A DNA stretch of 64,000 nt from an uncultured archaeon (GTDB lineage: Archaea; Iainarchaeota; Iainarchaeia; Iainarchaeales; JAAZKV01): NCBI GenBank assembly GCA_964534045.1, contig CAZHNO010000003.1, positions 37,323-101,322 of the forward strand. Direction: 5' to 3'. The stretch's first letter is position 1. Every line of letters begins with the position of its first letter. The position numbers and the translations under genes were made by a program. Under the pieces are notes generated by a model that saw only the letters and a program-made list of their open reading frames with translations, was not told the DNA's origin and did no database searches. Shown piece by piece: positions 3,874 to 43,110 of the stretch.

Positions 3874-4299
3874 ATGGTTAAAGAATTTAAAGAAAAAATA
3901 ATTACAATAAGCATGAAAAAAAATTTTGGAAAACCAGCAACAAAAAAATCAAAAGCTGCGTTACATTTGATAAAAGAAGCAGTTAGAAAAGAAACAAGAG
4001 CAATTGAAGTTAAATTAAGTAATGGAATAAACGAAAAAATATGGGAGAGGGGAATGTTCAAAACAGTAAAAAAAATAACTGTAAAAGTTATCCCTGAAGG
4101 AAAGAATGTTCGCGTTTATTTACCTGAAGAAAAAATCATTGTTAAAAAAGAAGAAACAAAAAAGAAAGGATTAAAGGAAAAAGCAGAAGAAGCAAAAGCA
4201 CAATTGGAAGGAAAATCAAAAACTTCTGAAAAAAAAGAAAATTTAAAAACAGAAAATAAAAATGAAGAAAAAAATGTTGAAGAAAAGGCAAAACAATAA
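3874..4299 (+). CDS. rpl31e: 50S ribosomal protein L31e with K/E-rich tail
   Basis: VKLSNGINEKIWERG...KKITVKV motif; conserved operon position. Confidence 0.85.
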   Translation: MVKEFKEKIITISMKKNFGKPATKKSKAALHLIKEAVRKETRAIEVKLSNGINEKIWERGMFKTVKKITVKVIPEGKNVRVYLPEEKIIVKKEETKKKGLKEKAEEAKAQLEGKSKTSEKKENLKTENKNEEKNVEEKAKQ

Positions 4300-4318
4300 A
4301 GCCTTTTCTAGAATTTTT

Positions 4319-4981: not shown

Positions 4982-4984
4982 AAA

Positions 4985-5168
4985 ATGAAAAAATTTGAAA
5001 TAATTGGAATATTCAAAAAACATGGAATTGAACATAAATACACAAAAATAATAGAAGCAGAAAATGAAGAACAAGCAAAAGAAAAAAAATTATTCGCTTT
5101 TTGGTGGGAATCAAAAAATTCCAAGGAGAAACATAACAATTGAAACACTAAAGGAGGCTAAAAAATGA
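4985..5168 (+). pseudogene. rplX: 50S ribosomal protein LX (L18a/L20a) interrupted by one extra A in an A8 run (5082-5089); may be a sequencing error
   Basis: Frame 0 MKKFEIIGIFKKHGIEHKYTKIIEAENEEQAKEK then +1 frame YSLFGGNQKIPRRNITIETLKEAKK*, whose TGA (5166-5168) overlaps the pfdA ATG; conserved eif6-rplX-pfdA order. Confidence 0.85.
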
Positions 5169-5593
5169 AACAAACATTTTCAGAAAATCAAATAATTCAA
5201 ATGGCACAACAAGAAGAAGGCATGTTACAAAGCAGAGAAAGATTTTACTCTGATTTACAAAATGTTTTAAGAGAAACACATTTGAGTATTGAATCACTAA
5301 AAGAAATACAAAAAAAACCAGAGACAATAATGGTTAAAGTTGGCCCAGGGGTTATAGTTGAAGCTGAAATAAAAAATACTAAAAAATGCAAAAGAGCATT
5401 TGCAGAAAATGGTTATTTAGAAGAAGAAATTACAGAAACAATTAAATGGCTTGAAGGAAAAAAAACAAACCTAGAAGCACAAGCAAAAAATGTTGCACAA
5501 GACATTTTTAAATCAAAGCAAAGATTAAGCGAGTTAATTGGAATAATAAAACAAATAGAAGCAGAAAAACAAAAAAATATTAGTGTGAAATAA
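5165..5593 (+). CDS. pfdA: Prefoldin alpha subunit
   Basis: Coiled coil-beta hairpin (IMVKVGPGVIVEAE)-coiled coil; precedes ftsY. Confidence 0.85.
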   Translation: MKQTFSENQIIQMAQQEEGMLQSRERFYSDLQNVLRETHLSIESLKEIQKKPETIMVKVGPGVIVEAEIKNTKKCKRAFAENGYLEEEITETIKWLEGKKTNLEAQAKNVAQDIFKSKQRLSELIGIIKQIEAEKQKNISVK

Positions 5594-5594
5594 A

Positions 5595-6986
5595 ATGTTT
5601 GGATTACTTAAAAAAAAACTAAGCAATTTCGGAGAAAGACTAAAACATAATTTAGATAAGAAAGAAATTGAAAAAGAAACAAAAACTAAAGAAAATGAAA
5701 TCTCTTCTGAAGAAATTACCCCTAAAAAAGAAATTATTTTAGAAAAAGAACCAATACTTGAGAAAGAATTTATTTCAAAAGAAAAAGAGTTGCCAAAAAA
5801 AACTATTTCTAAAGAAGATCAAGTTTTTGAAGAAATAAAAAAAGAAATTGAAAAAGAAGATGCTTCTTTACTTGAAGAAACCCCTAGTGAAAAAGAGATT
5901 GAAGAAGAATTTCAAAAATATGCAACCGAAGAAAAAAATAAAGAAAAAGAAATTCCAATTGACGAAAATATCGATGATGAATTTGAAAAAGAAATTTCTA
6001 AAGAAGAAAGTGGGGAAGATTTAGAAAAAAATTTGGTTGAGCAAGTAATTGAAAGAGAAAAAATTGAAATAAAAAAAGTTGATGAAGATAAAAGGGAATT
6101 AAAAGCAAAAATAGGCGCCGGTGGAAAAATAAAAGGTTTCTTTTCTGGAAAAGTTGAAATAAAAGAAAATGATATTGAAACATTAATTTGGGAATTAGAA
6201 TTAAGTTTAATTGAAAGTGATGTTGAACAAGATACTGCAAGAGAAATAACTCAACAAATAAAAAAAAGGATGGTGGGACAAAAAATTGCTTTAAAAAATT
6301 TAAATGATTTTTTGAAACAACAAATAAAAGAAATATTAAGCGAAATGATGAAAACAGAAAAAATAAATGTTTTAGAAGAAATAAAGAAAAATGAAAAACC
6401 TTATACAATATTATTAATTGGGCCAAATGGCGCTGGAAAAACAACATCTATTGCAAAACTAACACAATACTTTAAAAAAAATAAATTGAGCTGTGTATGG
6501 GCGGCTGCTGATACTTTTAGAAGTGGAGCAATAGATCAATTACAAGAGCATGCTGATAAACTAGAAACTAAAATTATTAAACAACAATATGGAGCTGATC
6601 CTGCTGCTGTTGCTTTTGATGCAATAAAAAGTGCAAAAGCCAATGGAAATGATGTTGTGTTAATTGACTCTGCAGGAAGACAAGAAACAAACAAAAACTT
6701 AATGGAAGAATTAAAAAAAATTGAAAGAGTTGCAAAACCTAATTTAAAAATTTATGTTGGGGAAGCATACACTGGACAAGGATTATTAGATATGGCAAAA
6801 GAATTTGATGAAATGATTGGAATTGATGGTTTTATTCTAACAAAAATTGATACTGATGCGAAGGGTGGAACAACAATTTCTCTACTTTACAAATTGAAAA
6901 AGCCAATTATTTTCATTGGAACTGGACAGAATTATGAAGATTTTGAAGAATTTGATAGTGAATTTATCCTAAATAGGATAATTTAA
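5595..6986 (+). CDS. ftsY: SRP receptor FtsY with long acidic N-terminal region
   Basis: GPNGAGKTTSIAK, DTFRSGAIDQL, DSAGRQ, TKIDTDAKGG SRP-GTPase motifs. Confidence 0.97.
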   Translation: MFGLLKKKLSNFGERLKHNLDKKEIEKETKTKENEISSEEITPKKEIILEKEPILEKEFISKEKELPKKTISKEDQVFEEIKKEIEKEDASLLEETPSEKEIEEEFQKYATEEKNKEKEIPIDENIDDEFEKEISKEESGEDLEKNLVEQVIEREKIEIKKVDEDKRELKAKIGAGGKIKGFFSGKVEIKENDIETLIWELELSLIESDVEQDTAREITQQIKKRMVGQKIALKNLNDFLKQQIKEILSEMMKTEKINVLEEIKKNEKPYTILLIGPNGAGKTTSIAKLTQYFKKNKLSCVWAAADTFRSGAIDQLQEHADKLETKIIKQQYGADPAAVAFDAIKSAKANGNDVVLIDSAGRQETNKNLMEELKKIERVAKPNLKIYVGEAYTGQGLLDMAKEFDEMIGIDGFILTKIDTDAKGGTTISLLYKLKKPIIFIGTGQNYEDFEEFDSEFILNRII

Positions 6987-16399: not shown

Positions 16400-18460
16400 T
16401 CAACTCCTCAATTTACCGTTATTCTCAACTTTCTCAACTGTGCTAATTTCACTAACTTTACTTGTATCTTCTTTTTCACAAATTGGGCAATATTCGTGTT
16501 CTCCAGATAAATAACCATGTATTGGACAAATACTAAATGTTGGTGTAAGAGAAACATAAGGCATTTGATAATTTTCTGTAACTTTTCTTACAAGCATTTT
16601 TGCTGCTTGCCCTGAGGGAAGTTTTTCTCCAAGGAAAATATGGAATACTGTTCCGCCAGTATAAAGTGTTTGTAAAGGATCTTGTTTTTCTAAAGCCGCA
16701 AACAAATCATTAGTATAATTAACTGGTAATTGTGTTGAATTAGTGTAATACGCAGGGGCACCATTTTTTGTTTGTGAATTATTAGCAACAATAATTTCTG
16801 GATATTGCTTTTTATCTAATCTTGCAAGTCTATGAGAAGTTCCTTCACCAGGGGTAGCTTCTAAATTAAATAAGTCTCCAGTTTCCTCTTGGTATTGTAC
16901 AAGTCGTTCTCTCATGAAAAGCATTATTTTTTTTGCAAATTCTGTTCCTTCTTCTTGTGTTAAATTTTTTCCTAAAAAGTTTATCAAAGCTTCATTCATA
17001 CCAATCAAACCAATTGTTGAAAAATGATTTTTCCAATATTGTCCTGTTGTTTCTTTCATCCCTCGCAAATAATAAGCTGAGTAAGGATACAAACCATTTG
17101 TTGAATAATTTTCCAAAGTTTTTCTTTTTATTATTAAAGATTCTTTTGCTAAGTCCATTGCTCTTGCAAGTTTTTGAAAAAAATGAACTTCGTCTTCTGC
17201 TAAATAACCGATTCTTGGAAGATTAATTGTTACTACTCCAATGCTTCCAGTCATTGGACTACTTCCAAATAAGCCACCCCCTCTTTTTGATAATTCTCTG
17301 TTGTCCAAACGCAGTCTGCAACACATACTTCTAGCATCTTCTGCACTCATATCAGAGTTAACATAATTTGCGAAATAAGGAATACCATACTTTGCCGTCA
17401 TTTCCCAAATTTTATCATAATTTTTTGTATCCCAATCAAAATCTTTTGTAATGTTATATGTTGGGATTGGGAAAGTAAAAATTCTTCCTTCAGCATCTCC
17501 TTCAGTCATTACTTCTGCAAAAATTTCGTTAAACAAATAAATTTCTTCTTGGAATTCACTATAAGTTGCTTCCATTGGTTTTCCACCAATAATTACTGGC
17601 GTATTGGCAAGATTTTTTGGAACAACCAAATCCATTGTAACATTTGTAAAAGGTGTTTGAAATCCTACTCTTGTTGGAACATTTGTGTTGAATATAAATT
17701 CTTGTAACGCTTGTTTTACTTCTTTTCGTGTTAAATTATCATATCTTATAAATGGGGCTAATAAAGTGTCAAAATTTGAAAAAGCTTGTGCTCCTGCGGC
17801 TTCGCCTTGTAAAGTATAAAAGAAATTTACTATTTGTCCAAGGGCTGTTCTAAAATGTTTTGCTGGTTTACAAGCAATTTTTCCTCTAACCCCTTTGAAA
17901 CCCTCAATTAATAATTGCTTTAAATCCCAACCAACACAATAAACACTTAGCTCGCTTAAATCATGGATGTGAAAGTCTCCCTTTTTGTGAGCATCCCCAA
18001 TCTCATCAGGATAAATTTTCATCAACCAATAATTAGAAACAAGCGAAGAAGAAATGTGATTTCTTAAACCTTGCAAAGAATAAGCCATGTTAGAATTTTC
18101 CCTAACCTTCCAATCTTCTTGTGTTACATAATCATCAATAACATCAAAATCTGAAAGCATTGATTCTTTCATTCTAATTAATTCGTGTTGATGTCTGTAC
18201 AGAATATAGGATTTTGCTACTTTGTCATGCCCAGCTTTGATTAAAACTTCTTCAACAACGTCTTGTATTTGTTCAACTGTTGGAATCCCTTCATCCCCAA
18301 AACGCGCATTAATCCTTTCTACAGCAATTTTTGACAAAGAAAGTGCTTTCTCTTTATCTTTTCCTCCAACACTTTGAGCAGCCTTCCAAATAGCTTCAGC
18401 TATTTTATGTTCATCAAAAGAAACTTTTGAACCATCTCTTTTTTTTACAAATTTAGGCAT
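16400..18460 (-). CDS. nrdD: Class III (anaerobic) ribonucleoside-triphosphate reductase, large part, with ATP cone
   Basis: VKKRDGS ATP cone, FHIHDL, SVYCVGW, RSMCCRL, EATPGEG, CPIHG...CPIC; lacks the RV.GY motif. Confidence 0.95.
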   Translation of the reverse strand: MPKFVKKRDGSKVSFDEHKIAEAIWKAAQSVGGKDKEKALSLSKIAVERINARFGDEGIPTVEQIQDVVEEVLIKAGHDKVAKSYILYRHQHELIRMKESMLSDFDVIDDYVTQEDWKVRENSNMAYSLQGLRNHISSSLVSNYWLMKIYPDEIGDAHKKGDFHIHDLSELSVYCVGWDLKQLLIEGFKGVRGKIACKPAKHFRTALGQIVNFFYTLQGEAAGAQAFSNFDTLLAPFIRYDNLTRKEVKQALQEFIFNTNVPTRVGFQTPFTNVTMDLVVPKNLANTPVIIGGKPMEATYSEFQEEIYLFNEIFAEVMTEGDAEGRIFTFPIPTYNITKDFDWDTKNYDKIWEMTAKYGIPYFANYVNSDMSAEDARSMCCRLRLDNRELSKRGGGLFGSSPMTGSIGVVTINLPRIGYLAEDEVHFFQKLARAMDLAKESLIIKRKTLENYSTNGLYPYSAYYLRGMKETTGQYWKNHFSTIGLIGMNEALINFLGKNLTQEEGTEFAKKIMLFMRERLVQYQEETGDLFNLEATPGEGTSHRLARLDKKQYPEIIVANNSQTKNGAPAYYTNSTQLPVNYTNDLFAALEKQDPLQTLYTGGTVFHIFLGEKLPSGQAAKMLVRKVTENYQMPYVSLTPTFSICPIHGYLSGEHEYCPICEKEDTSKVSEISTVEKVENNGKLRS

Positions 18461-18715
18461 CAGGCATCACAATTTTTTCAACGTGAGATAAATAAGTTTA
18501 GGGAGTTTATAAAGCTTACTTACTTTTTACGTAGAAAACAAAAAGCAAACCAAAAATTATTGAAACTAAGAAAAAAAATAAAAAAAATCACACAAAAACT
18601 CGGACTTGATTCAGAAAACAAAAAAAAATATTGTAAAAAGTTTGGAATTACTTTTAGTTATTGTAAAAAAAATATTTTTCTAAAAAGTTTTAAATTTAAT
18701 TTGTAATTTTCCAAA

Positions 18716-20074
18716 TTATTCAAGTTTTAAATTTGGATATAATGGAAAATTCTTACACAATTTTTTAACTTCTTCTCTTATTTCTTTCACTCGCACATTT
18801 GATTTAAGCTCTTGTTTGAATTTTTTGATTGCTTCTTTTCTCTGTTCAGGATTAGATGGCATTTCAAGCGGAGCGAACAATTTTATTATTTCTGAAATCC
18901 AATTTCCTATTTGAAGCATTTCTTTTTCTTTCATTCCCCTTGTTGTGAGAGATGGCGTACCTAAACGAATGCCTGAAGGATAGAACGGAGAGAAGGGTTC
19001 TTTTGGAATAGTATTTTTATTCACAGTTATTCCTGCTTCATCTAATGCTTCTTGAACAAACAAGCCTTTTCCATTACCAAAAGAAGTTAGGTCAATTAGA
19101 CAAAGGTGATTATCTGTTCCATTTGAAACTAATTTTATTCCATTTTCTATTAAAGAAGAGGCAAGTGCCTTTGAATTAAGAACAATTTGCTTTGCATAAT
19201 CTTTGAACTCTGGCTCAAGGGCTTCTTTGAAAGCAACTGCTTTACCTGCGTTAATGTGATCATGTGGGCCACCTTGCAAGCCGGGAAAAACAGCCGAATC
19301 AATTTTCTTAGCCAAATCTACATCTTTATCCAAACCTTTTTGTGTAACCATTATCATTCCACCACGAGGGCCTCGTAAAGTTTTGTGAGTTGTGCTTGTT
19401 ACAATGTGAGCAAATGGAACTGGAGAAGAATGAACTTCGCCAACTATTAAACCGGCGATGTGAGCAATATCACAAGCAAAATATGCTCCGACTTCGTCAG
19501 CAATCTTTGACATCTCTTCAAAAGGAAATTCTCTTGGATATGCTGTTGCTCCACACCAAATTAGTTTTGGTTTGTGCTTTCTAGCAAGAAAAGCAACCTC
19601 TTCCAAGTCAATATAACCATCATCTTTCACATGATATGGGATTGAGTTATAGAACTGGCCTGTAGAACTAACTTTGAAGCCGTGAGTTAAATGCCCACCA
19701 TCACTTAAATTCAAACCCATTATTGTGTCGCCTGGTTTGCAACAAGCCAAGTAAACAGCTAAATTTGCTGGAGAGCCTGAATAAGGTTGAATGTTTGCGT
19801 GTGGAACAGAGAAAAGTTTTTTTGCTCTTTCAACTGCAATGTCTTCCATTTGGTCAACAAATTTTTGCCCACCATAATATCTTTTGTGAGAATAACCTTC
19901 AGAATATTTATTATTAAAAATCGAACCCATTGCCTGTTGAACAGCAAAAGAAATATTGTTTTCAGAAGGAATCATTTCCAAGCCCTCTTCTTCTCTCTGT
20001 AATTCATTTTTTATTGTATCAAAAATCTCTTTGTCTTTTTCACTTAACTTTTGCATAAAATCTTTTTCACTCAT
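18716..20074 (-). CDS. glyA: Serine hydroxymethyltransferase, bacterial type
   Basis: MIPSEN, YSEGY..KRYYGG, GGHLTHG, TTHKTLRGPRGG (PLP Lys), GIRLGTP. Confidence 0.97.
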   Translation of the reverse strand: MSEKDFMQKLSEKDKEIFDTIKNELQREEEGLEMIPSENNISFAVQQAMGSIFNNKYSEGYSHKRYYGGQKFVDQMEDIAVERAKKLFSVPHANIQPYSGSPANLAVYLACCKPGDTIMGLNLSDGGHLTHGFKVSSTGQFYNSIPYHVKDDGYIDLEEVAFLARKHKPKLIWCGATAYPREFPFEEMSKIADEVGAYFACDIAHIAGLIVGEVHSSPVPFAHIVTSTTHKTLRGPRGGMIMVTQKGLDKDVDLAKKIDSAVFPGLQGGPHDHINAGKAVAFKEALEPEFKDYAKQIVLNSKALASSLIENGIKLVSNGTDNHLCLIDLTSFGNGKGLFVQEALDEAGITVNKNTIPKEPFSPFYPSGIRLGTPSLTTRGMKEKEMLQIGNWISEIIKLFAPLEMPSNPEQRKEAIKKFKQELKSNVRVKEIREEVKKLCKNFPLYPNLKLE

Positions 20075-20079
20075 AAAAA

Positions 20080-20748
20080 TCAACTTTCTAAAACTTCTTT
20101 TACTTTTTCATAAATCATTTCGTGAATTTTTTCAATTGAGAGCAATGAATTATTTTCAACACAATCTAATTTTGTCCAGTTTAATTTTGGAATTGTTTTA
20201 TCAAATTCTTTTGTATAATTTTTTTGAAATTCAATATCTGCTTCATGCTGATCGCGTTTTTGTCCTTTCTTATATGCCTCAGCATTTTCATTATTATCAA
20301 GTAATTTCATTGAATACTCAACAGGAACATATAATACAAGAGTTAAATCTGGTTGGGGCAAACGAGAAGAAACATTATTTATCCAATTCCAAATCTCTTC
20401 TTTTTTTTCTTCAGGAGTTAAGGCAACTTGATAAGTAAGTGTTGAAGAAAAGTAACGAGAAAGAAGAATTATCTTTCCCCCATCTAAAGCTTTTTCCATT
20501 TGCCATTTTGACTCATAAAAATCTGTCATATAAAGCATCGCAATAAATTCTGGTGGAATATCTTCTTTTTTTCCATATTCTCCCATTAAATAAGCATCAA
20601 CAACTTTTCCAAACGAAATATCGTGTTTTGGAAAATGCATGTGCAAAACTTCTTCGCCTTCTTTTTCTAATCTTTCTTTTAACAATTTTAACTGAGTGCT
20701 CTTTCCTGAGCTATCTCCGCCTTCTAAAACTATTAGCTTTCCTTTCAT
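20080..20748 (-). CDS. tmk: Thymidylate kinase (paralog 2)
   Basis: IVLEGGDSSGKSTQ P-loop, SRYFSSTLTYQ, PDL, DQHEAD. Confidence 0.85.
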   Translation of the reverse strand: MKGKLIVLEGGDSSGKSTQLKLLKERLEKEGEEVLHMHFPKHDISFGKVVDAYLMGEYGKKEDIPPEFIAMLYMTDFYESKWQMEKALDGGKIILLSRYFSSTLTYQVALTPEEKKEEIWNWINNVSSRLPQPDLTLVLYVPVEYSMKLLDNNENAEAYKKGQKRDQHEADIEFQKNYTKEFDKTIPKLNWTKLDCVENNSLLSIEKIHEMIYEKVKEVLES

Positions 20749-20797
20749 AAAAATAAATTTTTTAATTAATTATTTTTTAATTCTTTTAAATTATTTT

Positions 20798-21361
20798 TCA
20801 CTTTACTTTTGCTAAATTACCTTCGTTATTTTTTGATTCATATTTTACTTGATATTGAACTTTATCATCCAACATATCTTTTTCTCGCCAATCATTTACC
20901 CATTCATCAACGCTATGTGCAACAACCTCTCCATTTTCATTATTTCCAACAAATCTTTTAATTCCAGAATTAATAATCATTTTTTTGCACATAAAACAAG
21001 GATAAGCTAAAACAAATTTGTCTCCTTCTTCTGAGCGTTTTACAAAATAAAGGTAAATTGTTCCATCTAAAAGAGAAACTCCTGCACGAGCAGCATTAAT
21101 AATTGCATTTTGCTCAGCATGAACCGAACGACAAATTTCATATCTCTGTCCTGATGGAATGCCCAATTCTCTCCTTAAACAATTTCCTCTTTCAAAACAA
21201 TCTTTTGTGTGGCGTGGAGCACCTATGTAACCAGTGGCAATTATCTGATCGTCACGAACAATTATTGCTCCGCCTTTAACAGACATACAAGTGCTTCTTT
21301 CAGCAACTTCTTTTGCAATATTCCAATAATAAACATCCTTGCCAGGACGATAATTTGACAT
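20798..21361 (-). CDS. dCMP deaminase (ComEB family)
   Basis: RSTC, ATGY.G.P, HAEQNAII, PCFMCKKMIINSGI; GGGTG RBS before ATG 21361. Confidence 0.9.
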   Translation of the reverse strand: MSNYRPGKDVYYWNIAKEVAERSTCMSVKGGAIIVRDDQIIATGYIGAPRHTKDCFERGNCLRRELGIPSGQRYEICRSVHAEQNAIINAARAGVSLLDGTIYLYFVKRSEEGDKFVLAYPCFMCKKMIINSGIKRFVGNNENGEVVAHSVDEWVNDWREKDMLDDKVQYQVKYESKNNEGNLAKVK

Positions 21362-21462
21362 TTCAACACCCAAAAAAATATAGTGCAAGTTGTTATAAAT
21401 ATAATTCACAAAAAACAATTTTAAGCAAATTTGTTTAAATACTTTTAAAATTATAAATAACT

Positions 21463-22083
21463 ATGCAAATTGACTCTATTTACTTAGTAGTTCATCCACT
21501 TTTTAGACAAGCACAAATGAAAGACTCAAAAGAAAGACGTGCTGTAACTCAAAATGAAATGGATAACTATGGTCGAATGATTCTTGAAGCAAAGAAAAAT
21601 GCAAATTCGCTAATAATTTTTGTCCCAACAACAACTAAAAATCCAGAAACTAGAAAAAAACAAGCCAGATTAATAAAATTTGCTAGAAAGACACTTGGAA
21701 AAAGAGTAATTAGTCTGTCAACTGAATTTGGTTTTCGAGAACACCGCCGTTTAAAAGACATGGTTGACAGTCGACCAGAAGACACACAACGAATACAAGC
21801 CGCAATAAAAGAAGCCACAAAAAAGTTATCCCAATTTGAATTCACAAAAAAACCAACAATTATTTCATCTGGACAATTTCTTGGCCAGTGTGTTATGAAT
21901 GGCTCTTTTAACCTAGAATATATTCTAAAATTAAGAGGCTCAAAACCAAATATCTCTTTTCAAAAAGAGTCAAAAACGCTATCTGATACAGTTGTTTTAC
22001 TCGGAAAGAATCGCTCAATGATTGCATTTAGGAAATGGCGACAAAAAACTTTTGGAAAAAAAGCTAAAAAGCACTTATCATAG
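21463..22083 (+). CDS. Basic hypothetical protein, possibly isochorismatase-like fold
   Basis: IYLVVHPLF and SGQFLGQCV segments; K/R-rich C-terminus; fold guess by eye. Confidence 0.6.
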   Translation: MQIDSIYLVVHPLFRQAQMKDSKERRAVTQNEMDNYGRMILEAKKNANSLIIFVPTTTKNPETRKKQARLIKFARKTLGKRVISLSTEFGFREHRRLKDMVDSRPEDTQRIQAAIKEATKKLSQFEFTKKPTIISSGQFLGQCVMNGSFNLEYILKLRGSKPNISFQKESKTLSDTVVLLGKNRSMIAFRKWRQKTFGKKAKKHLS

Positions 22084-22146
22084 GACACTTTTTTGCTTTG
22101 AGCTGTGAATTAATAAGAATTTTGCAAATTAATTTTAATGATATAA

Positions 22147-23475
22147 ATGGAAATTACACTTACTGAAATTAACAAAAATGAGCTACAAAAATTAAATGAT
22201 TTCTTAGAAAATAATGAATTAAATGTTCAAGAGTTTAATGAACTGACAAAAACAATTAACTTTTCTTTTTCTGTAGAAAATTGTTCACGACTTTTAAGTC
22301 ACCACATCTGTGAATCTTTGGATTCATACACTCAACAAAGTCAAAGATATGTAAAAATGGGCAATGAAGCATTTGTAATTCCAAAAGAAATTGAAAAAAG
22401 TGATTTGAAAGAGGAGTATGAAAAATTAAATTTGGATTTATTTAAATTCTATAATAAAATAACTCAAATAAAAGAGGGATTTGCTGGAAGGAAAGCAAGT
22501 GAACAAGATTATGTTTATGGAATAAAAATAGAAGATGGAAGGTATGTTCTTCCATTAGCAACAAAAACCAACATAATAGTAACAATGAACCTATCAAAAA
22601 CAATTAACTTTTTCAATACAATAAAAAAAGCAAAAATAAATGAAGGCGAAGAGTTACTTGAAAAAATAAAAGAACTTCTTGGGAAAAATATTAGCAAATT
22701 TATTGAAAAAAATTTAAGTGAATTTGATTCTGGCAAAGTGAATGATTTTGTTCAAGAATATTTTAACAAAATTGATTCGAAAAACAATTGCGCTTTGTTA
22801 AACAAATTTGAAGAGCCATTAATTAGAAGTGGTTTGGGAGCATTAACGTCAACAAATGAAATTGGGGCGTCAAAAATAAAAGAAAAATGGGATGAAAAAA
22901 ATGAAGCCATTGAAAAAGCAAAGGCTGTTACTGAAAGAGTAATTGGCTATGGACACACATCCATAATTGAGCACGCGAGGACTAATTTTGGAATGCAAAT
23001 GTCATTAACTTGTTATCACCAATTTGAAAGACATAGACTACCAAACAATATTAGAGAAGAGTTTTCAAACTTACCTTTAGACAGAGAAGTAATTATGCCC
23101 CCCAGTGTTGAAAAAAATCAAGAAATTAACAAAGAATTCATGGAAAAAGTCCAAATGGTAAAAGAATTTAGAAAAAAAATGAATGAAAAGAATTTGCCTC
23201 AAGAATATTTGCTACTGAATTGTGATATTTTGAAATTGATTAGTTCAACAAATGCTAGAATTGATAACGAAATTTTGGCAGAAAGAACATGTAATAATGC
23301 TCAATGGGAAATAAGAGATTTATACACAAAAAAATTAGAACAATTACAAAAAACAGCCAAAGTATTATATGATAAAGCTGGGCCACCATGCACAAAAGGC
23401 ACTTGCCCTGAAGGCGCACTAAGTTGTGGAAAAATAATTGAAGTTAGAAAAAAATTTGGTTACTTTGGAAAATAA
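22147..23475 (+). CDS. thyX: FAD-dependent thymidylate synthase, tandem two-domain form
   Basis: N-domain SRLLSHH...SYTQQSQRYV and EDGRYVLPLATKT; C-domain GHTSIIEH, HQFERHR, RTCNNAQWEIR, GPPC..G.CPEG..SCG. Confidence 0.85.
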   Translation: MEITLTEINKNELQKLNDFLENNELNVQEFNELTKTINFSFSVENCSRLLSHHICESLDSYTQQSQRYVKMGNEAFVIPKEIEKSDLKEEYEKLNLDLFKFYNKITQIKEGFAGRKASEQDYVYGIKIEDGRYVLPLATKTNIIVTMNLSKTINFFNTIKKAKINEGEELLEKIKELLGKNISKFIEKNLSEFDSGKVNDFVQEYFNKIDSKNNCALLNKFEEPLIRSGLGALTSTNEIGASKIKEKWDEKNEAIEKAKAVTERVIGYGHTSIIEHARTNFGMQMSLTCYHQFERHRLPNNIREEFSNLPLDREVIMPPSVEKNQEINKEFMEKVQMVKEFRKKMNEKNLPQEYLLLNCDILKLISSTNARIDNEILAERTCNNAQWEIRDLYTKKLEQLQKTAKVLYDKAGPPCTKGTCPEGALSCGKIIEVRKKFGYFGK

Positions 23476-28242: not shown

Positions 28243-30033
28243 ATGTCTAACCTAGTTTTAAATGATGAAACTCTTGAGAGTGAAAAAAAAATTAAAAAAG
28301 CATTTGAAATAATTCAAAAAAGTGGTGAAAAAGAAATACTTTTACGGGCAAAGAGAATTTTGCTTGTTTTAAACAAAAAAAATATGGGTGCAACAACCAC
28401 TATTTCTGCAATACTTTACCCCCTAGTTGAAAAACAAAAAATTAGTCTTGAAGAAATAAATAATACATTTGGACAAGAAGTAATGTTAATCGCAAAAGAA
28501 TGTGTTAGAATAGAAGAAATTCTAAATGCAAATTACAAAAAAATACCCCCTGAAACTTTAAGTGCATTAATACTCTCAATTTCAACCGATTTAAGAACAA
28601 TAATTATTAAGATTGCTGATATTACAGATCAATTAAAAAATAATTCTAGTATTGATAAAAATAAATTTATTTTTTTTGCAAAAAATATATATTCCCCACT
28701 AACTGCAAAGCTAGGAATTTCTGATCTTGGCTGGCAAATTGCGGATTATTGTTTCAAACTAGAAAACCCACAAGGATATGAAAAAATAAAAAAATTGGTA
28801 AATAAAACTCGAGAAGAAAGAGAAAAACTAATTGAAGATATAAGAATTGAAATAGAAAAATTTTTGAGTGGAAAAATAAAAGTACATGTTTTTGGGCGCC
28901 CAAAAAACTTTTACTCAATTCATGAAAAATTAAAAAAAGTATCTTTCAAAGAAATGCATGACATTTATGGAATAAGAATAATTTGCAACAAAGAAAGAGA
29001 ATGCTATGAAATTTTAGGAAATATACATTCAAAATATAATTTCATTCCAAGCGCATTTGATGATTATATTGCCAAAGAAGGAAAGGGGCTTGGGAAAAAA
29101 GGCTATCAAAGCATACACACTGCAATAATAAGAAATAATGACGTTATTGAAATACAAATAAGAACTTGGCAACAACACCTAAAAACAGAATCTAGTATTT
29201 ACTGGGAATATAAAAGATTACGAAAAGATACTACTCTTGACAAATCACTAAGTTGGGAAAGGCAATTGGTGGAGTGGCAAAAAAGTATTGGGGAAGAAAA
29301 TAAAAACAAAAAAATAATTAGTGGAAAATTATTTGTTTTCACTCCAAAAAATGAAGTCATTACTCTTCCAAATAATTCAAGCGCGCTCGATTTTGCGTTT
29401 GCTGTTCATTCAGATATTGGAAAAAGAGTAAAACAAGCAAAAATTAATGGTGAACTAGTTCCAATAGAAACTAAATTAAAAAACTTGGACAAAGTTGAAA
29501 TAATTACTGATCAAAAAACAAAAATCAGGCCAGATTGGTTGAATATGGTGGTTAGTGAAAGAGCAAAAACAAAAATCAAAAGACACTTTGGATTAAAAAG
29601 TGCAATTGTAAAAAAGCAACATGCATCAGAACAAATTACAAAAAAAATAAAACTTGCTGAATGCTGTCATCCTCTGCCAGGGGAAGATGTAATTGGAATA
29701 AAAACCACTAAAAGAAAAATAATAATTCATAAACGAGATTGTAAAAACATAGCAAACATTTCTAAAAATAAAAAAATAGAAATATATTTTGAAAAGGAAA
29801 GAGGAAAAACAAAAATTAAAGTTTTGGCAATTGATAGAATTGGTTTACTGGCTGAAATTCTTGAAGAAATAAAAAGAAATAAAGCAACATTAAGTTCAAC
29901 AAACTTTAATATAAAAAAATCTGGGTATGTTGAAGCAATATTTGAACTTGAAATAAAAAATATAAATGCGCTTGAGAGATTAATTAATAACTTAGAACAA
30001 ATTCCATCAATACAAAGCGTTGATAGGGAGTAA
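28243..30033 (+). CDS. rsh: Long RelA/SpoT homolog (degenerate HD, synthetase, TGS, ZFD, ACT)
   Basis: GRPKNFYSIHEK, DIYGIR, DYIAK...GYQSIHT, EIQIRT, FVFTPKNEVITLP...DFAFAVHSDIG, AECCHPLPGEDVIG, C-terminal ACT (AIDRIGLLAEI). Confidence 0.95.
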   Translation: MSNLVLNDETLESEKKIKKAFEIIQKSGEKEILLRAKRILLVLNKKNMGATTTISAILYPLVEKQKISLEEINNTFGQEVMLIAKECVRIEEILNANYKKIPPETLSALILSISTDLRTIIIKIADITDQLKNNSSIDKNKFIFFAKNIYSPLTAKLGISDLGWQIADYCFKLENPQGYEKIKKLVNKTREEREKLIEDIRIEIEKFLSGKIKVHVFGRPKNFYSIHEKLKKVSFKEMHDIYGIRIICNKERECYEILGNIHSKYNFIPSAFDDYIAKEGKGLGKKGYQSIHTAIIRNNDVIEIQIRTWQQHLKTESSIYWEYKRLRKDTTLDKSLSWERQLVEWQKSIGEENKNKKIISGKLFVFTPKNEVITLPNNSSALDFAFAVHSDIGKRVKQAKINGELVPIETKLKNLDKVEIITDQKTKIRPDWLNMVVSERAKTKIKRHFGLKSAIVKKQHASEQITKKIKLAECCHPLPGEDVIGIKTTKRKIIIHKRDCKNIANISKNKKIEIYFEKERGKTKIKVLAIDRIGLLAEILEEIKRNKATLSSTNFNIKKSGYVEAIFELEIKNINALERLINNLEQIPSIQSVDRE

Positions 30034-33913: not shown

Positions 33914-34444
33914 ATGCAAGAGATAATTATTTTTAGATATGGGCATAGGGCAGTGCGAGATTATCGTGTGTCAAGCCATTGTTCATTAGTTGCTAGAGCA
34001 TTAGGCGCAAAAAAAATAATTATTTGTGGAGATAAGGATTTGTCTATGAAAGAAAGTGTGGATGATATTAACAAACGTTGGGGGGGCAAATTTGAAGTTG
34101 ATTTTGTTGAAGATTGGAAAAAAGAAATAAAAAAAATAAAAAAACAAGGTTATTGCTTAATTCACTTAACGATGTATGGCGAAAGTATTGTTAAAAAAGA
34201 AAAAGAAATAAAAAAGCAAGGAAAAATTTGTATAATCATTGGTTCGCAAAAAGTAGAAAAAGAAGTTTATTATCTTTCAGACTATAATATTTCAATAACT
34301 AATCAACCACATAGCGAAATCGCAGCATTGGCAATAACCATTGATAGGTTATTGGGCGGGAAAGAACTAACAAAAAATTTTTCCAATGCAAAAAAACAAA
34401 TTATTCCACAAAAGCAGGGAAAGCAAGTTATTGATTTAAAATAG
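33914..34444 (+). CDS. trm56: tRNA (cytidine(56)-2'-O)-methyltransferase (SPOUT)
   Basis: RYGHRAVRDYRVSSH..LVARALGA, HLTMYG, IGSQKV, NQPHSEIAALAI. Confidence 0.93.
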   Translation: MQEIIIFRYGHRAVRDYRVSSHCSLVARALGAKKIIICGDKDLSMKESVDDINKRWGGKFEVDFVEDWKKEIKKIKKQGYCLIHLTMYGESIVKKEKEIKKQGKICIIIGSQKVEKEVYYLSDYNISITNQPHSEIAALAITIDRLLGGKELTKNFSNAKKQIIPQKQGKQVIDLK

Positions 34445-34465
34445 TTTTCCATAGGATAATATTAT

Positions 34466-35002
34466 ATGCCTCAAAAATCTATAACTGAGCTTAGCCTTGT
34501 GCGCGACTTTTTAGAAACGCTTGGAGGCAAGGAAGTTGTAGATCTGGTAAAAATTTGTGAAAGAAAGAGAAAGGCATTCACTGATGAAGACATTTCTAAG
34601 AAAATGGATATGAAAGTTACTGAAATAAGGGCTTTATTGAATAAACTACATTTTAGGGGTATTACAAGCTATCAAAAGAGTAGAAACCAAAAAACAGGAT
34701 GGTATAATTACACTTGGGACTTAAATAAAGAACGATTAGCAGAAATTATAATCAGTCAACAAAGGGACCAATTAGATAAATTAAGCGAAAAAAAGGTAAT
34801 AGAAGAGGATTATAATCTTTTTGATTGTAATGGTTGTAATGAAAGGCTTCCGTTTGAAATAGCGGCAGAATATAATTTTATATGCCCCAGTTGTGGAAAT
34901 ACAATGGATTCTACAAATAACCCTCAAAAACAAAAGGAGATAGTTAAAAAAATCAAAGAAATAGAGAAACAAATAATGATTTTGAACGAAATGAAGATAT
35001 AA
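34466..35002 (+). CDS. tfe: Transcription factor E alpha subunit
   Basis: wHTH (TDEDIS...IRALLNKL, TGWYNYTW) plus C..C...FEIAAEYNFICPSCG. Confidence 0.93.
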   Translation: MPQKSITELSLVRDFLETLGGKEVVDLVKICERKRKAFTDEDISKKMDMKVTEIRALLNKLHFRGITSYQKSRNQKTGWYNYTWDLNKERLAEIIISQQRDQLDKLSEKKVIEEDYNLFDCNGCNERLPFEIAAEYNFICPSCGNTMDSTNNPQKQKEIVKKIKEIEKQIMILNEMKI

Positions 35003-35176
35003 AAAACACATAAAGTTGGACAAATATAAAAAATAAGAATTAAAATAATTAAAGAACAAATATAGCTTTAAATTTACTAAAAGCCAATAAAATTGGTTTT
35101 TAAAGCTTTTAAGAATATTTTTAGGTTTTTTAAGAAAAAAAAAGTCCAAAAAGAGCTTAAAAGCGAGCAAAAACAT

Positions 35177-35251
35177 AGTGGGGTAGGGCAGCCTGGAGTG
35201 CCCGTCGGGCTCATAACCCGAAGGTCGGAGGTTCAAATCCTTTCCCCACTA
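35177..35251 (+). tRNA. Initiator tRNA-Met(CAT)
   Basis: A1-U72 acceptor AGTGGGG/CCCCACT, three G-C pairs in anticodon stem TCGGG-CTCATAA-CCCGA. Confidence 0.96.
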
Positions 35252-35664
35252 CTATTCTAATCAAAAAACAACCAAATAATAAGAAAAATCAAATACTCAA
35301 AAAAAGTCATTTTTGAAACTAATTATAATTTAAGCAAAAACAAGCAATTTAACAAGTATCACACTAACAAACAAACAGATAGTTTGTGCAAATCTATAAA
35401 TACCCCAATAGTTCCACTAATCACTTTATACAGAAAATCACTCATTTCAAGAATTTTTAAAAAAATTAAAAATCTATTCAATAATTTACATATCACTTTT
35501 AAATAAAATTTGCTAATTAAGACAAACTAGTAATTACTACTAAAAAGATATTAAAAAAATAAGCGCACTTTAACAAAAAGTAGCTTATTTTGGTAATTAC
35601 CTTTCATTACTATAATTAAGCTTCATTACCGTAAGTCTTTTAAGTAATTACGCTCAATATAATA

Positions 35665-36108
35665 ATGATGAGCATATTAAATTTTTTAAAAAAAATATTT
35701 ACCAAAAATAACATACATGCAACCGAAAGTGAAAATGCAGTAGATAAAGCAATTTACTCTGAAAAGCAATCAAATATAGCAAATGACACCCAAATACTAT
35801 CCATTTGGGACATTATAAAATGCACTGAACATACTCAAGCATATCACCTAGTGAGTGTTATTCCTTATGATGAATGGATTGATATGAGTGAAATAATGCG
35901 TAGAATATGGGACTTATTTCAAATAGAATACAAAAATGATCGTAGTTTATACCCTTATTTGAAAACAATGGTTGATTTGGGGCTTATTGAAACTAGCAAC
36001 ATTGGTGGAAAGAGAAAATGGAGAAAAAAGGACTTATTGGTAAAGATAAGTGAAAATAAAACTGAAAAAGAAACAATTAGCTTAGATAATTTAATAAAAG
36101 CCCAGTAA
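35665..36108 (+). CDS. Winged-helix DNA-binding protein (putative)
   Basis: MSEIMRRI...LYPYLKTMVDLGLIETSNIGGKRKWRK fits the wHTH recognition helix and wing. Confidence 0.7.
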   Translation: MMSILNFLKKIFTKNNIHATESENAVDKAIYSEKQSNIANDTQILSIWDIIKCTEHTQAYHLVSVIPYDEWIDMSEIMRRIWDLFQIEYKNDRSLYPYLKTMVDLGLIETSNIGGKRKWRKKDLLVKISENKTEKETISLDNLIKAQ

Positions 36109-36238
36109 AACAAGCAAGATAATAAGTAATCATGAGCTAAAAACACAGTTTCTAGGACATATTTTTGAAACAACATTAAAATTAAAAGAATTGAATTAAA
36201 TGTGTTTAAATTAGAAAATAAGCTTATTTAAGAAGTTT

Positions 36239-36832
36239 TTACTCTTTCAATGTCTTATAATTATTATAAAATTCAGTTAATTCCTTAGATTGTGAATAAA
36301 TATCTTTATTGAACCAATCTAAATCAACAATTGATTGTGCTTCGCTGATTAACTGCGCCTTATACACTGGTTCAACTTCTTTTTCAACCGCTCTTTTTAA
36401 TTCAGAGCCTAATTTAACTAACCCTTCACTTCCATCAATATATTTCCTTGAAACTAGTCCTTCAACTGCTTTTACAATATCAAGCTCAGGAATATCTTTT
36501 TCATTCAAAAAGTAAGTACACTTCCAATCACCCTTAACTGCCCAAGCATGAGTTGGATTGTGCCCTGTTTTAAAAAAATCTTGCAATGATTGAAATGCTG
36601 AAGGTGGGATAATAACACAATTTTTCCCTGGCCTTAAATAAGGATAATTTGAAAGGATTCCTTTTCTATGATAATGATACATTTTGCCATTTGATTTGTA
36701 AACCGCTTGAGTATAACCATAAATGGCTCTAAAAAGCTTTTGATAAGTATATGATGAATGTTTTATGTTTTCAGGTAAGATAAAACGATATTGAACAAAA
36801 TAACCCCTTACTGACACACCCAACACTTCCAT
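36239..36832 (-). CDS. Conserved-looking hypothetical protein (Tyr-rich N-domain, possibly ferredoxin-like fold)
   Basis: 197-aa ORF; YQKLFRAIYGY...YHYHRKGIL...CVIIP segment; fold is inference. Confidence 0.7.
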   Translation of the reverse strand: MEVLGVSVRGYFVQYRFILPENIKHSSYTYQKLFRAIYGYTQAVYKSNGKMYHYHRKGILSNYPYLRPGKNCVIIPPSAFQSLQDFFKTGHNPTHAWAVKGDWKCTYFLNEKDIPELDIVKAVEGLVSRKYIDGSEGLVKLGSELKRAVEKEVEPVYKAQLISEAQSIVDLDWFNKDIYSQSKELTEFYNNYKTLKE

Positions 36833-36930
36833 TAATATATATAAATAAAAAAATTTTTTATTTTCTTATGTATATATGTTATATATAACTTATATTAATA
36901 TTTAACTTTTTTTAAGAAATTTTTTCAAGA
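36831..36930. other. 92% AT tract, candidate DNA-unwinding element
   Basis: Counted 8 G/C in 100 nt, with alternating TA runs, next to the 16-bp repeats. Confidence 0.4.
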
Positions 36931-37049
36931 ATGTCCTAGAATTTGTGCTTTTTGGAAAGATAAGAGCAAAGTATAAATTGTCCTAAATTTTGTGTTTTTT
37001 AAATAAAAATAAGTATCTTAAGAGGTAATAAAAAAATTAAAGGAGATAA

Positions 37050-37373
37050 TTATCTCCTATATTTATATCTTGTATTTGTTGTATATCTAGTTTTTCTTTC
37101 TGGTTCAGCTTCTTCTTCATCTTCAACAACTGCTGGCCCTTTATTAGAGATTATTAAAATATCTTTTGCTGATTGAACATTTCTATAAGGGATACTTTTT
37201 TCAGAAAGAATTTTTTTAGCATCAGATTTTGTTTTAACTTTTAAAGGTTCAGTAGTAATAGTTTCTAATTTTCCTTTTTCAAGGTTAATTATAATATCAT
37301 ATACTTTTCCTTTGTAGCCTGCCTGTGCATCATAAATATCCATTCCGAATAATTTCGATAACTTTACACTCAT
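37050..37373 (-). CDS. PRC-barrel domain protein (CdpB-like)
   Basis: LSKLFGMDIY...GKVYDIIINLEKG...IPY..V....DILII; GGAGGT RBS. Confidence 0.88.
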   Translation of the reverse strand: MSVKLSKLFGMDIYDAQAGYKGKVYDIIINLEKGKLETITTEPLKVKTKSDAKKILSEKSIPYRNVQSAKDILIISNKGPAVVEDEEEAEPERKTRYTTNTRYKYRR

Positions 37374-37580
37374 ATTTACTACCTCCTTTGTTATATACAA
37401 AACAACAATGGAATATTTAAAGTTATTGTTAATTCACCAAAATACCTTGCTTATACATAATCAATTTTTATTTTAAATTAAGTTAAATTAGTGAGGTGAA
37501 AAAATAACATAGTTATACATAATAATTTTTAATTTAGGGTTATAAAAAAGAAGTTAGTATTGGAACTGTGGGGCTAGGGG

Positions 37581-38444
37581 TTATAAATTGTCTAATGGGC
37601 TTTCAACTTTTTTTAATTGTTCACTTGCTACATTTGTGTAAATTTGTGTGGTGTTAAGGCTTGAGTGTCCAAGTAAACTTTGTATATATCTAATATTTGT
37701 TCCTGATTCTAATAAGTGAGTAGCATATGAGTGTCTTAATGAGTGTGGAGTAACATGTTTTGTAATACCTGCTTGTTTAGCCGCCTTTCTAACAATTCTT
37801 TGTATTGTGTCTGTAGATAATTGTTTTCCGTTTTTTTTAGAAAACACATAATCACTTTTAACTTTTTTTTTGTTTAAATATTTTTTCAAACCTTTTATCC
37901 ATTCTTTTGAAAGAATTATTAATCTGTCTTTGTTTCCCTTTCCAGAACGTATCATTGCGGTTCTTTCTTTCAAATTTATATCATCAACTTTTAATTTAAC
38001 AACTTCACTTACTCTACAACCAGAACCATACATAAATTGTAACATTAATCTATTTCTTCCAAACCTTGTGGCATGAAATAATTCACGTATTTCATCTTTG
38101 TTTAAAACTTTTGGTAATGACTTTGCTTTTTTTGGAGTTTTTATTTCATCAACAATATTTTTTTTCAAATATTCTTTAAAAAAGTATTTCATTGCGGCAT
38201 GTATTAAACCTAAAGTAGCATTTGAACATCCATTTTCTTTTTTTTGAGCTAAAAATCCTATCAAATCTCGGCTTGTTATTTCATTTGGATTTTTATCAAT
38301 AAATTTTAGTAGTTCTTTAATGTACATAAGGTACATTTTGAGTGTTTTACTTGAATAACCCGCAATTATTAACTCTTGTTTGAATTCTTTAATCTCTCTT
38401 GCAAATTTTTCTTCATTTGCTTTTGCAGTATAATCATTATCCAT
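37581..38444 (-). CDS. xerA: Tyrosine recombinase XerA
   Basis: SAM-like N-domain; GCRVSE, GKGNKDR, TPHSLRHSYATHLLE, LLGHSSLNTTQIYT. Confidence 0.9.
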   Translation of the reverse strand: MDNDYTAKANEEKFAREIKEFKQELIIAGYSSKTLKMYLMYIKELLKFIDKNPNEITSRDLIGFLAQKKENGCSNATLGLIHAAMKYFFKEYLKKNIVDEIKTPKKAKSLPKVLNKDEIRELFHATRFGRNRLMLQFMYGSGCRVSEVVKLKVDDINLKERTAMIRSGKGNKDRLIILSKEWIKGLKKYLNKKKVKSDYVFSKKNGKQLSTDTIQRIVRKAAKQAGITKHVTPHSLRHSYATHLLESGTNIRYIQSLLGHSSLNTTQIYTNVASEQLKKVESPLDNL

Positions 38445-42294: not shown

Positions 42295-42912
42295 ATGGGT
42301 TTCTTGTTTCTTGATATTGAATCATTTGTTGATCCGAAGAATGAACGCTCTGGGCTGAATCCTCATTTTGAAAAGAGTGAAGTTTTAGTTATTGCGTATA
42401 ATTATTATGCGTTTGCGAAGGCCCCGTCTTTAGCCCAAGTAAAAGAGCCAACTTTTTTGTTTGAATGGGTTGAAGGCTCAGAAAAGAAGTTGTTAAAAAA
42501 ATTCTATGAGGTTTTAAAGGAAATTTACAAAGAAGACAAATTTTTGAAAATTGTTGGATTTAATCACATTGCTTATGATTTACCATATATGTTCTCACGA
42601 ATGATAGAAAATAAAGTTGCCGAAAAACAAGAGCTTTTTGATATGCTTTTTACTAATGCGAGACACATTGACCTGTCCCAATTAGGGATGGCTGTTTCTG
42701 AAAAAACAAAGAAAGATGAAGATTTTAGATGTATTTCTCAAAAAGTAATTAATGCGTATTTTGATATTCCAGTAAAAGTTGCTTCAGGGAAGGATGTTTC
42801 TGAATTCTATTTAAAGAAAAGGTATGATTTGATTGAAAAATATTGCAAAGAAGAATTTACCTTTGAAATGCTTTACCAATCCCTCTTAGAGTATTTTATT
42901 TATGTAAAATAA
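42295..42912 (+). CDS. DnaQ-like 3'-5' exonuclease domain protein (PolB exonuclease-like)
   Basis: FLDIES (Exo I), VGFNH..YDLPY (Exo II), HIDL, YCKEE (Exo III variant). Confidence 0.75.
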   Translation: MGFLFLDIESFVDPKNERSGLNPHFEKSEVLVIAYNYYAFAKAPSLAQVKEPTFLFEWVEGSEKKLLKKFYEVLKEIYKEDKFLKIVGFNHIAYDLPYMFSRMIENKVAEKQELFDMLFTNARHIDLSQLGMAVSEKTKKDEDFRCISQKVINAYFDIPVKVASGKDVSEFYLKKRYDLIEKYCKEEFTFEMLYQSLLEYFIYVK

Positions 42913-43110
42913 GAACAAAAAAATTGAATTTTATTTTTTTATTAAGAAATTTATTTTTTATTTTTTTTGATTAAAAAACTTTGTCCTAGAATTTAAGTTT
43001 TTTTAAATTCGTTTTTTGTATAAGTATACATAAGAAAATGGCTTCTTCACTAATTCACTTTTCAAATTAATCAAAATTTTTGGATAAGGTTTTTATATGA
43101 GAAAATTTAT

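Follow-up and report, generated by a model that had tools for sequence, protein, structure and literature searches.

A conserved gene-end motif in Iainarchaeota as a possible polar boundary site on DNA

Polar terminators and fork barriers are known from several settings, with Reb1 and TTF-I acting at rDNA, mTERF in mitochondria, and RTP and Tus-Ter in bacteria; the RTP of Bacillus subtilis is a winged-helix protein. We know of no protein-dependent polar terminators of the Reb1, TTF-I, mTERF or RTP type in archaea, and to our knowledge archaeal termination is described only in terms of oligo-T tracts, which are the known intrinsic terminators, and of FttA (aCPSF1). Of the cis-acting signals of DPANN archaea, an uncultured group with genomes that are tiny and compact, almost nothing is known to us. 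Here we describe a repeated motif, TGTCC-N8-G(T/A)G, in an AT-rich stretch of 64,000 nt (G+C about 29%) from an uncultured archaeon of the Iainarchaeota (GenBank assembly GCA_964534045.1, contig CAZHNO010000003.1, positions 37,323 to 101,322), hereafter the window. The motif is real, is restricted to this lineage, is anchored to gene ends with a strong strand bias, varies in concert within genomes, and recurs in a gene cluster in which a winged-helix gene keeps its place. We tentatively propose that it is the duplex-DNA site of a lineage-specific protein and acts as a polar boundary or terminator element.

Among described systems the closest is ucm of Sulfolobus, an 11-bp motif that was found via replication origins, lies at hundreds of mostly intergenic places, and is read as a duplex by UBP, a small, essential, lineage-restricted protein that serves as a sequence-specific nucleoid-associated protein (Dhanaraju et al. 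2025, PMC12141716). The likeness lies in the combination of a dispersed, mainly intergenic motif with a small lineage-specific candidate reader. However, UBP peaks are tied neither to gene ends nor to orientation (PMC12141716), whereas the Iainarchaeota motif is 16-21 bp long, asymmetric, anchored to stop codons and polar to transcription, and its reader is only a candidate. With the sites of Reb1, TTF-I, mTERF and RTP the motif shares an asymmetric layout of about 20 bp behind a transcription unit; those sites are protein-bound and orientation-dependent in their action, whereas the function of the motif is deduced only from its position. In addition, the T-rich release element of the Reb1-type sites lies upstream of the protein site, whereas the T tracts of the motif lie beyond the core in both directions. 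We found no earlier description of the motif in the literature.

Pattern and weight-matrix scans detected six good copies in the window (copies A to F, Table 1), often with A or T runs at the flanks. An earlier note on this DNA had reported copies A to D, all of them intergenic and the last one partial, and these were recovered at the positions and on the strands given in Table 1, copy D having a degenerate last triplet. The repeat exceeded background: 16-mers resembling it with up to three mismatches were seen seven times against 1.75 expected, a number reached by 0 of 100 shuffles, and TGTCCTARA occurred four times against 0.93 expected. The motif unit is longer than 16 bp, as T runs extend beyond the GTG side and often beyond the GGACA side too. 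Copy E, which is the copy conserved throughout the phylum, reads TAA-AAAA-CACATAAAGTTGGACA on the plus strand directly past the tfe stop, and an initiator tRNA-Met gene (tRNA-iMet) follows 155 nt further downstream. Copy A occupies a convergent gap, 35 nt past the stop of the winged-helix gene and 79 nt past that of a gene encoding a 197-aa protein, and has T5 on both strands. The GGACA end of copy B points to the 197-aa gene, and copy C lies about 53 nt past the stop of a PRC-barrel gene. Copies A and B are thus inverted around the 197-aa gene with their TGTCC ends pointing to it, so that the bracketing described in the note was also correct. Copy D follows a PolB-exonuclease-like gene (42295-42912) at 70 nt and has orthologous copies in two other loci (L002 and L018). 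Copy F reads AAAAAG-CACTTATCATAGGACA-C-T6 on the plus strand, 60 nt ahead of thyX, and is conserved in L082 and L083.

We examined the distribution of the motif in 80 loci of species-representative genomes (1.17 Mb in total), which were retrieved with a profile of relatives of the 197-aa protein. The consensus from these loci was TGTCCAAGATTTTGTGTTTTT, or TGTCC-A-A-S-W-W-T-T-T-GTG-TTTTT in matrix form. At a threshold of at least 14 bits the position weight matrix (PWM) gave 161 matches, compared with 6 in the shuffled sequence used as background, and the strict pattern occurred 115 times, although all such counts are inflated by orthology. No match of at least 16 bits was found in 781 kb of unrelated control DNA obtained via distant ThyX homologues. 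The strong PWM matches were mostly (106 of 125) outside called open reading frames (ORFs), and away from the tfe cluster the density was roughly one per 10-20 kb. For the proteins encoded near the repeat, all relatives came from metagenome-assembled genomes with the labels Candidatus Iainarchaeum, Diapherotrites or "archaeon", which places the window in a genome of the Iainarchaeota (Diapherotrites, DPANN).

The position of the motif relative to upstream gene ends was tightly held. In 56 of the 72 tfe-bearing loci it starts 0-8 nt past the tfe stop and in another 7 at 9-26 nt, while it overlaps the stop or the last codons in 2 and lies within the last tfe codons in further loci; tRNA-iMet is 100-236 nt downstream of this copy in nearly all loci. 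Of 105 intergenic matches, 98 have their GTG side towards a gene or tRNA end, more than half of these within 7 nt. In L007, L008, L017 and L025 the motif is located between tRNA-Phe and a KaiC-like ATPase gene, 22-73 nt past the tRNA and at 22-25 nt in three of the four loci, and the distances to the conserved TATA of the next gene are 29, 42 and 74 nt. Promoter-less convergent gaps carry conserved copies (the class of copy A, 21 loci), and only 3 of the 105 intergenic matches are in divergent, promoter-rich gaps. Other sites include the 5' region of xerA (L009, L012 and L016) and codons 17-22 of another gene (L013, L014, L022 and L029).

Around the 197-aa gene the copies are more narrowly distributed. 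We distinguished a closer group of loci (at least 60% identity) from a distant group. Upstream of the gene, one or two copies were found 94-183 nt from its start in 17 of 28 closer loci and in none of 49 distant ones; in most loci the distal copy lies 53-66 nt past the PRC-barrel stop, and in four the copies are in tandem, 44-47 bp apart. Downstream, one copy lies 53-270 nt past the stop in 19 of 28 closer loci but in only 2 of 50 distant loci, and copies on both sides occur in 13 loci, all of them closer relatives. Because the flanking copies are concentrated in the closer loci and nearly absent from the distant ones, the bracketing of the 197-aa gene is a derived feature of one subclade, with the tfe copy being ancestral to the phylum.

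The orientation of the motif relative to transcription was nearly uniform. In tandem gaps it reads C(A/T)C-N8-GGACA on the sense strand in 78 cases against 4, and copies inside coding sequences were sense in 16 cases and antisense in 3, the latter overlying spurious ORFs at the tfe site. When independent site classes were counted instead of single matches, the ratio was about 16-17 to 3. As a separate matter, we considered a Ter- or KOPS-like switch of polarity at the locus, given that all 12 PWM matches in the window are on the minus strand to the left of 36.5 kb and on the plus strand to the right; this was rejected, as the switch tracks AT skew and gene orientation and is therefore not independent evidence.

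The core of the motif consists of the fixed blocks TGTCC and GNG, separated by an AT-rich 8-bp spacer with a conserved C/G; it has no dyad symmetry, and there are many copies per genome. The middle base of GNG is A in every copy of L007 (5/5), L008 (4/4) and L025 (3/3), and T in L038 (5/5) and in four copies of the window, some genomes being mixed. This concerted variation within genomes implies a common trans-acting reader. Runs of at least five T are present past GTG in 42-52% of copies and past GGACA in 23% of copies outside the tfe site, compared with 7.9% in control intergenic DNA, and about half of the copies, including many in GC-richer genomes, have no such tract. The motif resembles a bidirectional terminator in its placement, behind genes and within convergent gaps, and in its layout of A-run, core and T-run, but it differs from intrinsic and bidirectional terminators in that the core is not a hairpin, is conserved in sequence throughout the phylum, and often lacks T tracts. 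A core promoter was also considered and rejected: the spacer keeps its middle C/G, GC-richer relatives have no TATA beside the motif, and tRNA-iMet has its own canonical TATA-type promoter, 100-200 nt beyond the motif.

The gene cluster that always carries the motif (33914-38444 in the window; also L002-L081) is conserved throughout the phylum: one strand bears trm56, tfe, tRNA-iMet and the winged-helix gene, which run towards the xerA, PRC-barrel and 197-aa genes on the opposite strand. As a link between PRC-barrel proteins and cell division in archaea has been described, the cluster may be cell-cycle flavoured. In 79 of 82 loci the winged-helix gene has this convergent arrangement with the 197-aa gene. 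Its 147-aa product, which the earlier note had called a winged-helix protein, is one according to the predicted structure: the AlphaFold model has a confident core (predicted local distance difference test score, pLDDT, about 90 at residues 60-110), and its PDB neighbours in Foldseek are mostly winged-helix DNA binders, including all top-ranked ones, at weak E-values (0.07 or higher). Fur, PadR/LmrR, STIV F93, RTP (rank 14) and histone H1 are among them. The protein found no family in Pfam or NCBIfam and its own family is confined to Iainarchaeota, where residues 46-127, including RSLYPYLKTMVD and GGKRKWRKK, are almost invariant and the recognition helix and wing invariant. We regard it as the best candidate binder of the motif.

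The 197-aa protein is an alternative candidate factor. It is the product of a single-copy core gene present throughout the phylum, with 467 relatives at 50-78% identity and 57 invariant positions in an alignment of 23 sequences. The AlphaFold model (pLDDT 87.6; predicted template modelling score 0.82) suggests a beta-alpha-beta-beta-alpha-beta, ferredoxin/RRM-like N-terminal half. Searches of Pfam and NCBIfam, a PDB sequence search and Foldseek assigned it to no family, with no PDB match at E≤0.001, and the protein may represent a new fold or family of essential function.

Table 1. Copies of the motif and genes of the conserved cluster in the window.
Feature	Position	Strand	Remarks
Copy E, TGTCCAACTTTATGTG then T6 on minus strand	35007-35022	-	starts 4 nt past tfe stop
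Copy A, TGTCCTAGAAACTGTG+T5	36144-36159	-	convergent gap
Copy B, TGTCCTAGAATTTGTG	36932-36947	+	100 nt upstream of 197-aa gene start
Copy C, TGTCCTAAATTTTGTG+T6	36979-36994	+	47 nt from copy B
Copy D, TGTCCTAGAATTTAAG+T7	42982-42997	+	final triplet degenerate; behind PolB-exonuclease-like gene
Copy F, TGTCCTATGATAAGTG	22072-22087	-	spans stop codon of ORF 21463-22083
Weak candidate copy, AGTCCGAGTTTTTGTG	18591-18606	-	SHMT gene end to nrdD start; membership uncertain
trm56	33914-34444	+	
tfe (TFE alpha)	34466-35002	+	stop codon abutted by copy E
tRNA-Met(CAT)	35177-35252	+	initiator type by A1:U72 pair and GGG/CCC anticodon stem
Winged-helix gene, 147 aa	35665-36108	+	
197-aa gene	36239-36832	-	bracketed by copies
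PRC-barrel gene	37050-37373	-	copies C and B behind 3' end
xerA-type tyrosine recombinase gene	37581-38444	-	part of conserved cluster

Several further features lie in or near the cluster. The spacer between tfe and tRNA-iMet contains, at 35083-35101 on the plus strand, a hairpin GCCAAT-AAA-ATTGG followed by T5, for which relatives have compensatory variants (GCAAT/ATTGC, GCAGT/ACTGC and GTGAT/ATTAC) and which is probably either the hairpin terminator of tfe or a palindromic site for a protein. For the same spacer a structured RNA was considered and rejected, since RNAalifold gave no consensus structure on 15 relatives, which had only a small local hairpin in common. Between tRNA-iMet and the winged-helix gene is an ORF-less gap of 412 bp (35253-35664), long for such a compact genome, with imperfect inverted repeats at 35535-35564 and 35583-35612. 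Upstream of the 197-aa gene, the segment 36833-36931 is extremely AT-rich, with TATATA repeats and a perfect 12-bp palindrome, GTTATATATAAC, at 36878-36889. At 37042-37057 a perfect palindrome of 16 bp, GGAGATAATTATCTCC, overlaps the stop codon of the PRC-barrel gene. With the T-rich run that comes after it on the minus strand, it has the appearance of a hairpin-type terminator, a kind unusual in archaea.

Copy F and the weak candidate copy fall within a cluster for deoxynucleoside triphosphate supply (16400-23475), which comprises nrdD, an SHMT gene, tmk, a dCMP deaminase gene, a gene for a 206-aa protein of unknown function, and thyX, with the one copy ahead of thyX and the weak one ahead of nrdD. 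The ThyX encoded here has 442 aa and two Thy1 matches, i.e., a fused double domain, and few full-length relatives. Elsewhere in the sample, the locus L038 has four strong copies within 1.8 kb (4053-6868), among small genes without known function and adjoining a second, unrelated winged-helix-like gene of 156 aa; one of these copies fills the 30-nt gap between two co-directional genes, 3 nt past the stop and 9 nt before the ATG. In the window, 28243-30033 (plus strand) encodes a 596-aa RelA/SpoT-type protein with HD, RelA_SpoT, TGS and ACT domains. The full architecture of a (p)ppGpp synthetase/hydrolase is noteworthy in a DPANN archaeon. A 151-nt Rfam tRNA match at 1366-1516 (plus strand), missed by ARAGORN, is probably an intron-containing tRNA gene, and the single plus-strand frame that stays open for 7.6 kb from about 56365 to the window end at 64000 is probably the gene of a giant protein (>2500 aa).

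How the motif might act as a boundary or terminator on DNA can be pictured as follows. On the strand of the upstream gene the site reads (A-run)-C(A/T)C-N8(AT-rich)-GGACA-(often T-run), and a lineage-specific protein, for which the 147-aa winged-helix protein is the best candidate, would read it as duplex DNA. The bound protein would delimit transcription units at their 3' side and would stop or insulate transcription leaving the upstream gene, and together with the flanking T tracts it might also halt transcription coming from the other side. Closely packed transcription units would thereby be kept apart, and the three copies around the 197-aa gene would be the boundaries of the PRC-barrel, 197-aa and winged-helix units rather than a private device of that gene. 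We infer recognition at the level of duplex DNA, the identity of the binder and an effect on transcription, and we favour duplex recognition because a degenerate AT-rich spacer separates the two parts of the core, because the core is asymmetric and yet flanked symmetrically by A/T tracts, and because the one cluster in which the motif is always present also encodes a winged-helix protein that is invariant and lineage-specific. The general idea of the earlier note, that the repeat is a protein-recognition site, possibly one for the adjacent winged-helix protein, survives, given a motif that is conserved, asymmetric, dispersed and co-varying and the synteny of the winged-helix gene; the specific roles suggested there, as initiator boxes, operators or inversion sites, fared less well, as described below.

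A number of observations weigh against the proposed boundary site. Orthology inflates the raw figures for gene-end facing, and by independent site classes the ratio is about 13 to 5. The copies in the 5' region of xerA and at codons 17-22 are in 5' regions and are unfit for a role at 3' boundaries, copy D is antisense to both of its neighbours, and at the tfe copy a T tract past GGACA is present in only 1 of 56 cases. The PRC-barrel gene already has the hairpin and T-run at its stop, so that it would hardly need another terminator. The GTG/GAG variant, which is only loosely linked to clade, is not cleanly tracked by any residue of the winged-helix protein, whose recognition helix is constant. 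A search for RNA-seq runs retrieved none with sequence of this organism, which is present in wastewater and landfill communities. Finally, the strict sense orientation is explained equally well or better by a signal in RNA.

Such an RNA-level signal, though on balance unlikely, is the alternative to be taken most seriously. The motif (A-run CACAAAAUCUUGGACA) would be transcribed in the sense direction in 3' untranslated regions, intercistronic spacers or 5' regions, and an RNA-binding protein or nuclease would read it for 3'-end formation, processing of polycistrons or mRNA stability. The near-uniform orientation relative to transcription, both in tandem gaps and in coding sequences, is what this explanation would give, and the copies in coding 5' regions and in the last tfe codons, awkward for a promoter or boundary role on DNA, would be accommodated; coding-strand compositional bias alone, however, could favour the A-rich orientation inside genes. 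At a quarter of the sites other than tfe a T5-6 tract lies 1-6 nt past GGACA, so that transcripts would end right after the motif, but the T-tract enrichment is stronger on the opposite strand (42%), and this, like the bipartite core and its degenerate AT-rich spacer, suits duplex recognition better. The bracketed 197-aa protein, with its predicted ferredoxin/RRM-like half, is a candidate reader, and the only structural neighbours of its model, all very weak, include RRM and RAMP-like proteins. The motif itself had no conserved secondary structure in RNAalifold and no Rfam match: at the gathering threshold, Rfam detected only tRNAs and the signal recognition particle RNA in the whole window, and at E≤5 over 34.5-43.5 kb it gave nothing at the copies. 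Furthermore, three copies (copy D, L031:17023 and L060:5790) run antisense to the genes on either side, and those behind tRNA-Phe would fall in the discarded tRNA trailer.

The next alternative, an operator or upstream activating site at which the winged-helix protein or another factor switches the gene on the GGACA side on or off, is decidedly unlikely. The regulon would include tRNA-iMet, the 197-aa gene, thyX, xerA, the KaiC-like ATPase gene and possibly nrdD, with a flavour of DNA replication and the cell cycle, and the GGACA side does point to a gene start in 82 of 105 intergenic matches. The genes found downstream are indeed thyX (also in L082 and L083), xerA in three loci, the KaiC-like ATPase gene and the 197-aa gene, the last with its tandem copies in four loci. 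However, the distance to the start codon varies from 9 to more than 300 nt and that to the TATA of the KaiC-like gene from 29 to 74 nt, while the spacing from the gene end upstream is tightly held, and the classical operators of the earlier note were given up for this reason. The promoter of tRNA-iMet is its own and lies well beyond the motif. Conserved copies reside in promoter-less convergent gaps (the A class) and behind genes (the D class), and the divergent gaps rich in promoters are nearly devoid of them.

It is improbable that the oligo-T tract is the functional part, a terminator independent of any factor, and that the 16-mer is a favourable context spread by descent. The enrichment of T runs of at least five beside the motif and the location of copies at gene ends accord with such a context. 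Many strong copies in GC-richer genomes (L060, L071, L076 and L077), however, have no T run, and at the tfe site most of the T-richness is accounted for by TAA plus Lys codons read as their reverse complement. Nor would a mere context hold TGTCC and GNG fixed throughout the phylum or yield genome-wide switching between GTG and GAG.

We consider it highly improbable that the copies are origin recognition boxes (ORBs) or iterons, with inverted copies flanking an origin bound by Orc1/Cdc6 or, as in the initiator boxes of the earlier note, by the winged-helix protein. The euryarchaeal ORB consensus is GTTCCAGTGGAAAC-AAA----GGGGG (PMC1868953). The motif resembles it in being asymmetric (as expected of sites for monomeric Orc1), in its similar length of 16-21 bp, in its TCCA core, and in the inverted copies near the AT-rich stretch 36833-36931; genes for RPA, RadA, NrdD, ThyX and a GAN-like DHH protein are present in the wider neighbourhood. 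Beyond TCCA, however, the two share nothing, as the motif has neither a G-string nor a dyad of the TCCAnnnGGA type, and Pfam scans, which covered the window ORFs to about 56 kb, detected no Orc1/Cdc6. Between the inverted copies lies a conserved protein gene, the tfe copy is the only one retained in distant relatives, and the motif is dispersed over all sampled loci and anchored to gene ends.

The chance that the copies are recombination sites, at which a XerA-type recombinase inverts the 197-aa segment (the inversion raised in the earlier note), or the termini of a small mobile element is practically negligible: although inverted 16-bp repeats about 770 bp apart lie 600 bp from a tyrosine recombinase gene, gene order and orientation are identical in 79 loci across the phylum, at this locus most genomes carry just one copy, the gene between the repeats belongs to the single-copy core and is not a transposase, contigs of four metagenomes are colinear over 34900-37600, across every copy, without a strand-switch joint (a weak test, based on contigs only), and the motif has neither the dyad nor the 6-8 bp crossover spacer of dif, a site of about 28 bp with two inverted 11-bp arms around a 6-bp spacer that occurs once per chromosome. 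Two "skip" joints in the metagenome contigs have sides of 21-24 nt in AT-rich sequence and are not strand switches. A transposon or miniature inverted-repeat transposable element was likewise rejected, the enclosed gene being a single-copy core gene in fixed synteny throughout the phylum.

What is new here is a signal present throughout a phylum, with a precise consensus, a reproducible anchor past the tfe stop and two conserved candidate partner proteins, all of which are open to in vitro work without culturing. The motif is also useful as a marker, both for annotating gene ends and for recognizing Iainarchaeota contigs. It is unlikely at this stage, but conceivable, that Iainarchaeota possess a sequence-specific, protein- and orientation-dependent system that marks the boundaries of transcription units or terminates transcription, through a phylum-specific winged-helix protein (or the 197-aa protein acting on the transcript) and a 16-21-bp site behind stop codons; such a system would be an archaeal counterpart of the terminators of the Reb1, TTF-I and mTERF type. 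Should the motif turn out to be a factor-dependent boundary or terminator, it would be a new mechanism in archaeal transcription, and should it turn out to be a global binding site, it would provide the first regulon or nucleoid map for Iainarchaeota.

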